Positions 3,318-41,151 of a DNA stretch of 64,000 nucleotides are shown here, in pieces. The translations under genes and the position numbers were made by a program. The first letter of the stretch is position 1. Each line of letters starts with the position of its first letter. A model generated the notes under the pieces. The model was not told where the DNA came from and did no database searches. It saw only the letters and a list, made by a program, of their open reading frames with translations. The stretch lies in NCBI RefSeq assembly GCF_058153355.1, contig NZ_CM177019.1. One strand, given 5' to 3'.

Positions 3318-4781
3318 ATGTCTTTAGCAAAAGATAATATATGGAAACTATTGGCCCCACTGGTGGTGATGGGCGTCATGTTTCTTATCCCTGTCCCCGA
3401 CGGTATGCCACCGCAGGCATGGCATTACTTCGCTGTGTTTGTGGCAATGATTGTCGGCATGATCCTCGAGCCAATTCCGGCAACAGCGATCAGTTTTATT
3501 GCGGTTACTATTTGCGTTATTGGCAGTAATTACCTTCTCTTTGATGCCAAAGAATTAGCTGACCCAGCGTTTAATGCGCAAAAACAGGCGCTGAAATGGG
3601 GTCTGGCTGGTTTTTCCAGCACCACGGTATGGCTGGTATTTGGCGCATTTATTTTTGCATTAGGGTATGAAGTTTCCGGGTTAGGTCGTCGCATTGCCCT
3701 TTTCCTGGTGAAATTCATGGGCAAACGCACGCTGACGTTAGGTTATGCGATAGTCATTATCGACATTCTGCTGGCACCGTTTACACCGTCCAACACCGCG
3801 CGTACCGGGGGTACGGTTTTTCCGGTCATTAAAAACCTGCCGCCGCTGTTTAAATCATTCCCGAACGATCCGTCCGCGCGTCGTATTGGCGGCTATTTGA
3901 TGTGGATGATGGTCATTAGTACCAGTCTGAGTTCGTCCATGTTTGTCACCGGTGCGGCACCAAACGTGCTGGGTCTGGAGTTCGTCAGCAAAATTGCCGG
4001 CATCCAGATTAGCTGGTTGCAGTGGTTCCTCTGCTTCCTGCCGGTTGGCGTTATCTTACTTATCATTGCGCCGTGGCTTTCCTACGTGCTTTACAAACCG
4101 GAAATCACACACAGTGAAGAAGTAGCAACCTGGGCGGGTGATGAACTAAAAACCATGGGTGCGCTGACACGCAGAGAATGGACGCTGATTGGCCTTGTAT
4201 TGCTCAGCTTAGGTTTGTGGGTATTTGGCAGTGAAGTCATTAATGCTACTGCGGTAGGTCTGCTGGCAGTTTCGCTAATGCTGGCCCTGCACGTTGTGCC
4301 GTGGAAAGACATTACCCGCTATAACAGCGCATGGAACACGCTGGTCAACCTGGCAACTTTGGTTGTGATGGCTAATGGCCTGACTCGTTCTGGCTTTATT
4401 GACTGGTTCGCCGGTACCATGAGTACGCACCTGGAAGGATTCTCACCAAACGCAACGGTGATTGTACTGGTTCTGGTGTTCTACTTTGCGCACTACCTGT
4501 TTGCCAGCCTGTCTGCGCACACCGCAACCATGCTGCCGGTTATTCTGGCCGTCGGTAAAGGTATTCCGGGCGTACCAATGGAACAACTGTGTATCCTGCT
4601 GGTGCTGTCTATCGGTATCATGGGCTGTCTGACGCCGTATGCAACCGGTCCTGGGGTGATTATTTACGGCTGCGGCTATGTGAAATCAAAAGATTACTGG
4701 CGACTTAGTGCAATCTTCGGGGTGATTTACATCTCTATGTTGCTGTTGGTTGGCTGGCCGATTCTCGCCATGTGGAACTAA
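3318..4781 (+). CDS. citT: Citrate:succinate antiporter (DASS family)
   Basis: 487-aa polytopic membrane protein following citG; matches CitT. Confidence 0.9.
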   Translation: MSLAKDNIWKLLAPLVVMGVMFLIPVPDGMPPQAWHYFAVFVAMIVGMILEPIPATAISFIAVTICVIGSNYLLFDAKELADPAFNAQKQALKWGLAGFSSTTVWLVFGAFIFALGYEVSGLGRRIALFLVKFMGKRTLTLGYAIVIIDILLAPFTPSNTARTGGTVFPVIKNLPPLFKSFPNDPSARRIGGYLMWMMVISTSLSSSMFVTGAAPNVLGLEFVSKIAGIQISWLQWFLCFLPVGVILLIIAPWLSYVLYKPEITHSEEVATWAGDELKTMGALTRREWTLIGLVLLSLGLWVFGSEVINATAVGLLAVSLMLALHVVPWKDITRYNSAWNTLVNLATLVVMANGLTRSGFIDWFAGTMSTHLEGFSPNATVIVLVLVFYFAHYLFASLSAHTATMLPVILAVGKGIPGVPMEQLCILLVLSIGIMGCLTPYATGPGVIIYGCGYVKSKDYWRLSAIFGVIYISMLLLVGWPILAMWN

Positions 4782-4812
4782 TACGTTCGCCAAACGCTGA
4801 ATAAATCATCAC

Positions 4813-4847
4813 GCCCGCCAGGTAAGCCCACCTGGCGGGCTTTTTTA
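4813..4847 (+). terminator. Rho-independent terminator after citT
   Basis: GC stem cccgccaggt/acctggcggg followed by TTTTTT at 4841-4846. Confidence 0.8.
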
Positions 4848-4894
4848 TGATTTAATAGATAGTATTCAGTGTATGTATGAGTTCCACACCCATT

Positions 4895-5701: not shown

Positions 5702-5850
5702 TCCTCTGATTTACAAAAGACGCTAATTCGTCTTCCATAAACTATGACGATTAAGATTTATACATAATGCGCTGCATTGAGGAATTCCCTGAATGTGACG
5801 CAAATCACTTCAAAGAGTGAGCAACAGTCAGTATCATCATGTGAGTTAAA

Positions 5851-5882
5851 CCCTCGCCGCCTGACGGTGAGGGTTTTCTTTT
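5851..5882 (+). terminator. Hairpin plus U-tract between rna and rnk
   Basis: 9-bp stem ccctcgccg/cggtgaggg (one G-U pair), 5-nt loop, then ttttctttt. Confidence 0.6.
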
Positions 5883-5930
5883 GGGTATGTTTATCTGCGA
5901 CACTCGCAGTACCGACGACATGGAGTAAAA

Positions 5931-9918: not shown

Positions 9919-10664
9919 ATGTTAAAAAAGATACTTTTACTGGCTCTGCTTCCTACAATCGCCTTTGCAGAGGAACTTCCTGCTCCGGTAAAAGCGATTG
10001 AAAAACAGGGCATTAAGATCATCAAAACGTTCGATGCCCCCGGCGGAATGAAAGGTTATCTCGGCAAGTATCAGGATATGGGCGTCACCATCTACCTGAC
10101 TCCAGATGGTAAGCACGCTATCTCTGGTTACATGTACAACGAGAAAGGTGAAAACCTGAGTAACATGCTTATCGAAAAAGAAATTTATGCGCCAGCCGGA
10201 CGCGAAATGTGGCAACGGATGGAACAATCGCACTGGCTCCTCGACGGTAAAAAAGACGCGCCAGTCATAGTCTACGTTTTCGCCGATCCGTTCTGCCATA
10301 TTGTAAACAGTTCTGGCAGCAGGCGCGCCCGTGGGTTGATTCTGGCAAAGTACAGTTGAGAACATTGTTGGTTGGGGTTATCAAACCAGAAAGTCCGGCG
10401 ACAGCCGCGGCAATTCTGGCCTCTAAAGATCCCTCAAAAACCTGGCAAGAATATGAAGCCTCTGGCGGCAAACTTAATCTAAATGTGCCTACAAACGTAA
10501 GTACAGAGCAAATGAAAGTGTTAAGCGACAACGAGAAACTCATGGACGATCTGGGGGCAAATGTCACACCGGCTATCTATTACATGAGTAAGGAAAATAC
10601 GCTGCAACAGGCCGTGGGGTTGCCCGATCAGAAAACGCTTAATATCATTATGGAAAATAAATAG
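9919..10664 (+). pseudogene. dsbG: Periplasmic disulfide isomerase DsbG, frameshifted inside the CPYC active-site codons
   Basis: ORFs 9859..10359 and 10356..10664 are in different frames; the window reads ...FADPFC then 'cat att gta aac' where CPYCKQFW is expected, consistent with one missing C in a C-run near 10294-10297. Confidence 0.8.
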
Positions 10665-38010: not shown

Positions 38011-38039
38011 TGCTAACGTCAGATTGTTGACAAAGTGCG

Positions 38040-38140
38040 CGTCGTTCATGCCGGATGCGGCGTGAACGCCTTATCCGGCCTACAAAAATCTTGCCAATTC
38101 AATATATTGCAGGATAGTGTAGGCCTGATAAGCGTAGCGC
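38040..38140. repeat. REP (repetitive extragenic palindromic) elements
   Basis: gccggatgcggcgtgaacgccttatccggcctac and an inverted partner (aggcctgataagcgtagcgcatcaggc) between fepA and entD. Confidence 0.7.
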
Positions 38141-38175: not shown

Positions 38176-38805
38176 ATGGTCGATATGAAAACTACGCATA
38201 CCTCCCTCCCCTTTGCCGGACATACGCTGCATTTTGTTGAGTTCGATCCAGTAAATTTTCGCGAGCAGGATTTACTCTGGCTGCCACACTACGCACAACT
38301 GCAACACGCTGGACGTAAACGTAAAACAGAGCATTTAGCCGGACGGATCGCTGCTGTTTACGCCTTGCGGGAATATGGCTATAAATGTGTGCCCGCAATC
38401 GGCGAGCTACGCCAACCTGTGTGGCCTGCGGAGGTATACGGCAGTATTAGCCACTGCGGGACTACAGCATTAGCCGTGGTATCTCGTCAACCGATTGGCA
38501 TTGATATCGAAGAGATTTTCTCTGTACAAACCGCAAGAGAATTGACAGACAACATTATTACACCAGCAGAACACGAGCGACTCGCAGAATGCGGTTTAAC
38601 CTTTTCTCTGGCGCTGACACTGGCATTTTCCGCCAAAGAGAGCGCATTTAAGGAAAGCAAGATACAGGCCGCTCAAGGTTTTCTGGGTTATCAGATAATT
38701 AGCTGGAATAAACAGCAGATCATCATTCGACTAGAGGATGAGCAGTTTGCTGTGCACTGGCAGATAAAAGAAAAAATAGTCATAACGCTGTGCCAACACG
38801 ATTAA
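38176..38805 (+). CDS. entD: 4'-phosphopantetheinyl transferase (activates EntB/EntF)
   Basis: ORF 38035..38805; EntD recognised from (MVD)MKTTHTSLPFAGHTLHFVEF; start at 38176 or 38185. Confidence 0.85.
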   Translation: MVDMKTTHTSLPFAGHTLHFVEFDPVNFREQDLLWLPHYAQLQHAGRKRKTEHLAGRIAAVYALREYGYKCVPAIGELRQPVWPAEVYGSISHCGTTALAVVSRQPIGIDIEEIFSVQTARELTDNIITPAEHERLAECGLTFSLALTLAFSAKESAFKESKIQAAQGFLGYQIISWNKQQIIIRLEDEQFAVHWQIKEKIVITLCQHD

Positions 38806-38926
38806 TTGACAACATCTGGTACGATTCGCCCGCAGCCATCACTGACCACGGGCGAAAGTGTAAAGCAGGTGCCTTACCATCCTGACCTAACAACCGGATA
38901 TGCGGGGATTACTCCCCGCACAACGG

Positions 38927-39079
38927 CTACTTCTTCGGTTCGTAAGCGAGAACAGCCCTGAACTCAATATTACGTTCCTTTACGGTGAACTCACACAGCG
39001 AGTCGCCGACCAGAAGCGTAAATCCCAGCACTGTCAAACACAGCACTATGACCGCCACAAGGGCATATTTCGTCAGCAT
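38927..39079 (-). CDS. hokE: Hok-family type I toxin (50 aa), copy 1
   Basis: [50 protein letters not shown], a canonical Hok/Gef membrane toxin. Confidence 0.85.
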
Positions 39080-39428
39080 GTTTATATTGCCTCCATGCGA
39101 AGAAGGGACTACCATCCAAATTGTCTGGTTTGGAGTGGCGGCCCCAGGGTTGATAGAAATATCTCCTGGGGCTTCATCTTTCCAGACCTCAGAGTAAACC
39201 TGAAACCGGAAAGCTTCAGGCACCCGCCGTTATCTTACCCTTCCTTAGCAAAATGGCTGTTTATTTATACAGTGAGTCCTGTTTCGGACTTCTGTTGGCA
39301 AAACTGATCATTGCCCTTAAAACGACATCGCCCGCAGCCATCACTGACCGCGGGCGAAAGTGTAAAGCAGGTGCCTTACCATCCTGACCTGACAACCGGA
39401 TATGCGGGGATTACTCCCCGCACAACGG

Positions 39429-39581
39429 CTACTTCTTCGGTTCGTAAGCGAGAACAGCCTTAAACTCAATATTACGTTCCTTTACGGTGAACTCACACAG
39501 CGAGTCGCCGACAAGAAGCGTAAATCCCAGCACCGTCAAACACAGCACTATGACTGCCACAAAGGCATATTTCGTCAGCAT
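39429..39581 (-). CDS. hokE: Hok-family type I toxin (50 aa), copy 2
   Basis: [50 protein letters not shown]; differs from copy 1 at two residues (L6F, R41K). Confidence 0.85.
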
Positions 39582-40023
39582 GTTTATATTGCCTCCATGC
39601 GAAGAAGGGACTACCATCCAAATTGTTCGGGTTTGGAGTGGCAGCCCCAGGGTTGATAGAAATATCTCCTGGGGCTTCATCTTCCAGACCTCAGAGTAAA
39701 CCTGAAACCGGAAAGCTTCAGGCACCCGCCGTTATCTTACCCTTCCTTAGCAAAATAGCTGTTTATTTATACAGTTGGTCTTATTTCGGACTTCTCACTA
39801 CGCATTAGATCAACCGAAACTAAGCCAGTTTTTCCTTCGCCCCTCAATCGTCAAAATTCTCCGCCGCCAGCCAGCTCTGCCATAACCTGGCACATTGCAA
39901 AAGTAGCCAAATTGCTTCAGTAGCAATCAGTTCACCATCACCAAAAAAAAAGAAACATTCCAGAACTTCCGCATCTCCCCCGGCCGCTCCCACTTCTATA
40001 CTGAAATGAAAACGCCAACATAA

Positions 40024-41151
<1,128 letters not shown>

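Follow-up and report, generated by a model that had tools for sequence, protein, structure and literature searches.

A tandem pair of complete hokE/sokE units between entD and ybdK is a known, common copy-number state of Escherichia coli

The stretch of DNA analysed here (64,000 nt of contig NZ_CM177019.1, assembly GCF_058153355.1; hereafter the window) holds, between entD and ybdK, two closely similar reading frames for small Hok-family toxins. Is this pair a novelty of one strain, is each copy a complete toxin–antitoxin module, and does the antitoxin of one copy act on the toxin messenger of the other? A preliminary description, made from the sequence alone, took the interval to be a tandem duplication of the entire hokE locus and supposed that such a pair had not been described before. 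As regards the extent of the duplication this was right, each copy having its own leader and antisense gene and an intact toxin ORF.

That tandem units of ~0.5 kb lie at this site is borne out by the repeat finder, by pairwise alignment of the two copies and by synteny with annotated E. coli loci, which gives entD and ybdK as the neighbours (Table 1). The units, 468–469 nt long, follow each other head to tail with a period of 502/503 bp and have diverged by ~4%, being 96.1% identical over 469 nt; mean column identity is 94% when the non-repeated ends are counted. The repeat finder splits the repeat into three collinear blocks (38826–39125 against 39328–39627, 97% over 300 nt; 39124–39180 against 39627–39683, 96%; 39180–39293 against 39682–39795, 96%) because of two 1-nt indels in the leaders. 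A repeat of such length and identity cannot have arisen by chance. In the direction of transcription unit 2 is upstream of unit 1, and the short junction between them provides the T-run behind the terminator hairpin of unit 2 (39357–39328, tail TGTCGTTTTA), which was the sole terminator-like site detected in the terminator scan. The 3' hairpin itself is the same in both units (39318–39357 compared with 38816–38855), with this T-run behind that of unit 2 only; the hairpin of unit 1 is followed by ATCGTACC, as in single-copy strains.

Table 1. Coordinates of the features of the tandem hokE/sokE locus, in positions of the window.
Feature	Position	Strand	Basis or remark
hokE/sokE unit 1, entD-proximal, complete repeat unit	38826..39293	-	Direct repeats and alignment
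hokE/sokE unit 2, ybdK-proximal, complete repeat unit	39328..39795	-	Direct repeats and alignment
Inter-unit junction, 34 nt	39294..39327	-	Junctions compared across loci; poorly conserved among strains
hokE-1 CDS, 50 aa, R41 variant (RefSeq WP_000956467.1)	38927..39079	-	ORF list, Pfam
hokE-2 CDS, 50 aa, L7F and K41, rare variant (WP_176225438.1)	39429..39581	-	ORF list
hok leader 1	39071..39225	-	Rfam RF01794, 83.9 bits (gathering 59), full model 1–157
hok leader 2	39573..39727	-	Rfam RF01794, 76.4 bits (gathering 59), full-length
Putative hokE-1 mRNA, ~400 nt (tac 39218–39225, fbi 38867–38874, 3' hairpin 38826–38855)	38826..39225	-	
Putative hokE-2 mRNA (tac 39720–39727, fbi 39369–39376, 3' hairpin 39328–39357)	39328..39727	-	
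sokT target hairpin of hokE-1, loop CC-AGACAA	39103..39143	-	Rfam consensus hairpin
sokT target hairpin of hokE-2, loop CCCGAACAA (K-12 type)	39605..39646	-	Loop comparison
sokE-1 antisense RNA gene, ~59 nt	39123..39181	+	Aligned to K-12 sokE (b4835)
sokE-2 antisense RNA gene	39625..39683	+	Identical to K-12 SokE except for one U fewer in the 3' U-tract
Candidate sokE-1 promoter, TTGCCT-17 nt-TACCAT, 8/12 matches, ending 7 nt before the Sok 5' end	39087..39115	+	Inferred
Candidate sokE-2 promoter, same sequence as in unit 1	39589..39617	+	Inferred

Both 50-aa toxin frames are intact and lie on the minus strand exactly where the preliminary description had placed them. Two substitutions had been noted between them, of which R41K is correct as given; the other, reported as L6F, is L7F when residues are counted from Met1. 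The hokE-1 peptide matches Pfam PF01848 (HOK_GEF, E=3.9e-8, model positions 1–42 of 42), is the same as that of another locus (L006, 2501–2653) and was found by exact-sequence look-up in at least 1000 public contigs, where it is named HokE. The hokE-2 peptide is two residues off this PF01848-matching sequence, and the same look-up returned 3 public contigs only, all with the name HokE of E. coli. Two NCBIfam Hok models, which are centred on other Hok subgroups, did not reach their cut-offs: NF007290 (HokA equivalog, cut-off 89) gave 49 and 46.8 bits and NF007279 (Hok family subfamily, cut-off 73) gave 39.5 bits. Since PGAP names identical proteins HokE, these scores are no argument against Hok membership.

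Both peptides have the conserved cysteines C14 and C29 and, at position 46, where the family has Cys or an editable Tyr codon, Y46; the functional roles of the two Hok cysteines and of position 46 have been laid out previously (PMC12214031). According to the same study, the Tyr46 site of the K-12 hokE mRNA is edited from A to I by TadA, to the extent of ~40%, giving Cys. The codon for Y46 is TAC with G as the next base, and the UACG context is thus kept in both copies of the window (codon 46, minus strand, 38942–38944 and 39444–39446), so that by analogy with K-12 both toxins could be editing-dependent. K-12 HokE was also among the toxic controls of a recent hok assay (bioRxiv 10.1101/2025.08.07.668861).

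The leader upstream of each toxin frame matches a single Rfam model along its full length. This model, RF01794, is named 'sok antitoxin', yet its match is to the hok-sense strand and extends only as far as the hok AUG (Table 1), and it therefore describes the hok mRNA leader, not the antisense RNA. We took the start of the model as the putative 5' end of the mRNA (39225 and 39727) and the GC-rich hairpin that closes each unit as the putative 3' end. The leaders had been proposed as the place to look for fbi and tac elements, and when the transcripts were folded a tac–fbi closure was predicted in both copies: in the MFE and the centroid structures of both 400-nt transcripts, GGGUGCCU (nt 1–8) pairs with AGGCACCU (nt 352–359), the fbi sequence lying ~40 nt from the 3' end. 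Such 5'–3' closure is typical of inert full-length hok mRNAs. Predicted folding energies are -170.8 kcal/mol for the hokE-1 transcript (z=-6.6 against shuffled controls) and -173.4 kcal/mol for that of hokE-2 (z=-7.4).

It had further been suggested that indels between the leaders change the reading frame upstream of the toxin. The indels do exist, as two differences of 1 nt. One falls in the sokT loop (CC-AGAC against CCCGAAC), where it commonly distinguishes alleles; the other, an absent T near 39684 in the U-tract of the Sok-2 terminator (plus strand 39682–39684, CATCTT-CC), is private to the window. It is the sole difference over 6,073 nt from GCA_043012465.1, which has TTT, and a T is present at this position in all 32 other hokE leader variants collected; it therefore reflects a mutation private to this sequence or else a sequencing error in the homopolymer. 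The frame that the indels shift is an in-frame extension of hok rather than a mok-type overlapping frame, and it is probably untranslated. An in-frame AUG does occur 12 codons upstream of hok; as a coding extension this frame was rejected, the indels lying in RNA-structure elements and no ribosome-binding site preceding it. Overlapping the hok start is a 42-codon out-of-frame ORF with a TTG start, open in both copies (39119 to 38991 and 39621 to 39493), with no recognisable ribosome-binding site in either. Among the ORFs of the window there is no convincing mok-type frame with a ribosome-binding site, and the RefSeq annotation of K-12 has no mokE.

On the opposite strand each unit carries a sokE gene, located by comparison with K-12, where the RefSeq sokE (b4835) is 60 nt long and has its 5' end 44 nt upstream of the hokE ATG. 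A sigma-70 consensus scan of both strands of 38750–40050 at a threshold of 9/12 found no promoter, and the hok and sok promoters were therefore placed by K-12 sokE homology and the start of the Rfam model. The candidate Sok promoter segment is invariant in 49 distinct units. In the predicted folds each Sok gene ends in a strong hairpin and a U-tract; sokE-1 begins with a single-stranded 5' tail, GUCUGGUUUGG, and its differences from K-12 sokE are confined to the first 6 nt and a single stem position. Sok starts inside the loop of the Rfam consensus hairpin, i.e. the sokT target hairpin, and two base pairs in the stem of that hairpin vary in a compensatory manner, A-U to G-C, among 33 leader variants. 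At least four sokT loop alleles occur in the loci collected (L001–L061), with stem forms CCAAA/TTTGG and CCGAG/CTCGG.

The other part of the preliminary description, that such a tandem pair is unusual, does not hold. A BLASTN search of E. coli genomes had been proposed as the check, and it showed two copies to be common, not rare: the 299-nt core (CDS plus leader) was present in 5,407 of 5,426 complete genomes, which together have 8,352 chromosomal matches to it (median 2 places per genome, never more than 4), in a collection that is clone-biased and with BLAST 'places' that approximate copies. At least two places were present in 29 of 60 evenly spaced records. Prevalence was estimated from places per genome, the junction being too variable among strains for a junction-specific BLAST count, and these figures can fairly be read as two or more copies in about half of all complete E. 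coli genomes. Among the multi-place records that were opened, most have two or three PGAP-annotated hokE genes 502–504 bp apart (these include O157:H7, O111:H8 and, with three copies each, APEC O78:H4 and 2013C-4282), and two of the opened records have an IS-interrupted arrangement. Unit matches were also doubled in 12 of the 41 unit-bearing metagenome contigs.

The arrangement has also been described in print. For AIEC NRG857c, a table published in 2020 lists Hok-2.1 as 'homologous to hokE' and Hok-2.2, 504 bp apart from it, as 'Duplication of hok-2.1' (PMC7232551, Table 1). Type I loci are known to be prone to tandem duplication (PMC2887945), and hok 'islets' of 2–6 copies, formed through local duplication, hold 13.5% of the chromosomal hok genes of Escherichia (bioRxiv 10.1101/2025.08.07.668861); Faridani (2006) makes no mention of hokE or of tandem copies. 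With about half of complete genomes, the RefSeq annotation and a published table all pointing the same way, the tandem hokE pair in the window is an already known, common and annotated copy-number state.

We therefore favour, with a probability of about 0.9, the reading that the window carries two complete, independently equipped hokE/sokE modules, which together are one allele of a long-standing polymorphism of one, two, three or occasionally four copies in E. coli and its sister species. Copy number was presumably made and reshuffled via unequal crossing-over and gene conversion between the ~502-bp units. Each copy encodes its own Sok, and each unit most likely works in the manner of hok/sok of plasmid R1. 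In the R1 paradigm, the stable full-length hok mRNA is inert through pairing of its 5' tac with its 3' fbi element, slow trimming of the 3' end gives a refolded, translatable form that exposes the sokT hairpin, and the short-lived Sok RNA, made from the opposite strand, pairs with the hok mRNA, which is then destroyed; Hok, when it is made, damages the inner membrane. By analogy, a closed and inert hokE mRNA would be slowly trimmed at its 3' end until sokT is exposed and the messenger becomes translatable, the 5' tail of the ~60-nt Sok would start pairing at the sokT loop and so bring about destruction of the hok mRNA, and any HokE translated would be expected to damage the inner membrane.

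The likeness to R1 hok/sok (parB) covers the Hok/Gef toxin, the Rfam leader model, the predicted closure of the mRNA and an antisense RNA that starts in the loop of the target hairpin. Unlike the R1 system, the window locus is chromosomal and not plasmid-borne, and no clear mok frame was found in it. Post-segregational killing is not expected of a chromosomal locus, and papers that cite Pedersen and Gerdes (1999) report that intact chromosomal hok loci mediated none. K-12 hokE/sokE (b4415/b4835) shares with the window the entD–ybdK site, the leader architecture and a 50-aa toxin, which is two residues apart from each of the window's two peptides, and its sokE is that of unit 2 apart from one terminal U. 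In contrast to the two units of the window, whose 3' ends are intact, K-12 and its derivatives carry a single hokE copy with IS186 behind it, as the preliminary description had stated for K-12; IS186B starts 19 nt after the stop codon and cuts off the 3' fbi and the terminator.

Closest of all are the annotated tandem pairs and triplets (O157:H7, hok-2.1/hok-2.2 of AIEC NRG857c, APEC E12049), which are like the window in locus, 502–504-bp period, orientation and position-matched copies, and from which it differs in allelic details only, namely L7F in copy 2 and the private 1-nt deletion. Duplication of whole toxin-plus-antisense units within one intergenic region, with a copy number that varies among strains, is likewise seen in ldrABC/rdlABC, ibs/sib, zorO-orzO/zorP-orzP and the hok islets; the first three belong to other toxin families, and the islets include the type of locus found in the window.

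Whether one Sok could rule both messengers was approached through predicted duplex energies. Between the two Soks there are four differences, three of which fall in the first 6–7 nt, and the predicted full duplexes amount to -129 kcal/mol for cognate and -113 to -118 for cross pairings; for the 5' tails the values are -50/-51 and -37/-40, a loss of ~10–14 kcal/mol, in a computation that covers duplex energy. As modelled, partial cross-repression between the copies is most likely. A stricter separation can be imagined, in which selection keeps the Sok 5' tails and sokT loops different and each Sok mainly governs its own hok mRNA. The Sib RNAs, which act on their cognate ibs mRNAs, are a model for such insulated control.

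Several features of the locus speak for a separation of this kind, which we nevertheless think unlikely. No other segment of the unit varies as much as the sokT hairpin (0.115 pairwise differences per site in 49 distinct units, against 0.035 for the CDS and 0.000 for the Sok promoter/SD), and the changes in its stem are compensatory. The loops differ between copies in 9 of 9 multi-copy complete-genome loci and in E. whittamii, and do so even where the CDSs are identical (L004, L008, L015, L037); in the window, the copies differ at 4 of 33 sokT positions but at 11 of 370 in the remaining transcript. However, leaders are identical in five metagenomic pairs (L017, L034, L038, L040, L046), cross duplexes are still predicted to be very stable, and positional inheritance combined with short gene-conversion tracts in the CDS gives the same pattern without selection, in a sample that is small and phylogenetically non-independent. 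A general rule that tandem copies always differ in the sokT loop fits all nine complete-genome loci as well as the species representatives and is refuted by the five identical-leader pairs; a loop difference is therefore not obligatory. We are equally doubtful that the Sok 5' tail and sokT loop form a selected specificity code, the toxin genes meanwhile being homogenised by gene conversion; under such a code the a-type and b-type loops of the window would be one insulated pair.

The pair in E. whittamii (L015, hok ATGs at 10096 and 10599, hok-sense reverse strand) deserves separate mention. Both of its copies share the species-specific residues V17A and G25R, and they differ at 0 of 153 positions in the CDS, 9 of 101 in the 3' UTR and 3 of 33 in the sokT hairpin. 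From this comparison, gene conversion seems to have been restricted to the coding part.

Completeness of both modules could also be questioned for unit 2, which might be decaying toward a pseudogene, with a rare toxin variant and a shortened Sok U-tract. The T missing near 39684, unique among the 33 leader variants, does shorten the U-tract of the Sok terminator and removes one base pair from the 5' stem of the hok mRNA, and L7F is rare. But the ORF of unit 2 is intact, its leader still scores above the Rfam gathering threshold (Table 1), the predicted full-length fold of copy 2 is as stable as that of copy 1, and the missing T is possibly a homopolymer sequencing error, the near-identical assembly having TTT. 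Decay of unit 2 thus seems to us a rather improbable reading.

As to age, the two copies are matched by position across strains. Unit 1 of the window shares 98.6% and 97.5% identity with entD-side copies from two other strains (the former that of E. coli 2013C-4282), and unit 2 is closest to ybdK-side copies (97.5% and 96.9%). In a pattern scan of one genome per species, tandem pairs with a 502–503 bp period were found in E. whittamii, Escherichia sp. MOD1-EC7003 and a divergent E. coli representative, and single copies in E. albertii and Escherichia sp. E1V33. The positional match across strains and the pairs in sister species therefore speak for an old duplication, which predates the split of these lineages and has been lost, re-expanded and shuffled repeatedly since.

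A recent, strain-specific duplication new to the lineage is in our view highly improbable. The L7F peptide of copy 2 is rare, as would suit such an origin, and some metagenomic pairs are identical or nearly so over the transcribed unit (L038 throughout; L017, L034 and L046 from the leader through the CDS), so that recent duplication or homogenisation does occur at this locus. Within the window, however, the two copies are less similar to each other (96.1%) than each is to same-position copies elsewhere, and the combination of an a-type and a b-type loop is also present in E. coli 24A16CRGN010, in SCPM-O-B-8794 and in E. whittamii.

That a single hokE unit was wrongly expanded to two during assembly is very unlikely: short-read metagenome assemblies do often break at the locus, many of the 41 contigs stopping close to the match, but the copies of the window differ at ~4% of positions, including two amino acids, and are therefore not an expansion artefact, which would yield identical copies, while for each the nearest relatives among complete genomes are copies in the corresponding position, and thousands of such genomes carry the pair. 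The pair is also present in an independent E. coli assembly, GCA_043012465.1, which an exact-peptide look-up brought up; over 6,073 nt this assembly matches the window with 0 mismatches and a single gap (99.98%). The GTDB species representatives came no closer than ~94–96%.

Some further observations at and around the locus are recorded here. IS elements have struck it repeatedly (L058, which is K-12, 3508–4852; L009, 1–572 and 1312–2424; L007, 3253–4622; L040); in FDAARGOS_401 a copy of IS186/IS421 lies behind each of two hokE copies, and in strain R3 the leader of one copy contains IS150. For IS186, the GC-rich 3' hairpin is a possible hot spot. On the plus strand, opposite the entire hok unit, there are long antisense ORFs (38900–39307, 135 aa; 39402–39656, 84 aa); PGAP calls their counterparts elsewhere 'hypothetical protein', and many of these counterparts contain a frameshift or internal stops (e.g. 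WP_009008364.1), so that the ORFs are probably spurious. In two metagenome contigs (L044, L045), which carry a rearranged or disrupted variant, the hokE leader and first 16 codons continue into an unrelated C-terminal sequence. Elsewhere in the window, the fepA–entD spacer (38039–38126) has REP-like matches to naRNA4 (38.4 bits, below the gathering threshold of 59.5) and ES036 (44.4 bits, above gathering), an rnk leader match lies at 5777–5885 and a tRNA at 62294–62367.

As found, the pair in the window matters little, being a common annotated copy-number variant of a known toxin–antitoxin locus. K-12, with its one IS-damaged copy, is a poor reference for the hokE locus, since most natural Escherichia genomes sampled have intact units and about half have two or more. 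The questions about expression of both copies, and about control of both by a single Sok, concern thousands of known genomes and not the window alone. If recognition loops turn out to keep the tandem copies functionally apart, the locus would offer a handy natural setting in which to ask how an antisense RNA discriminates among near-identical targets, and how duplicated toxin–antitoxin modules avoid or exploit cross-talk.
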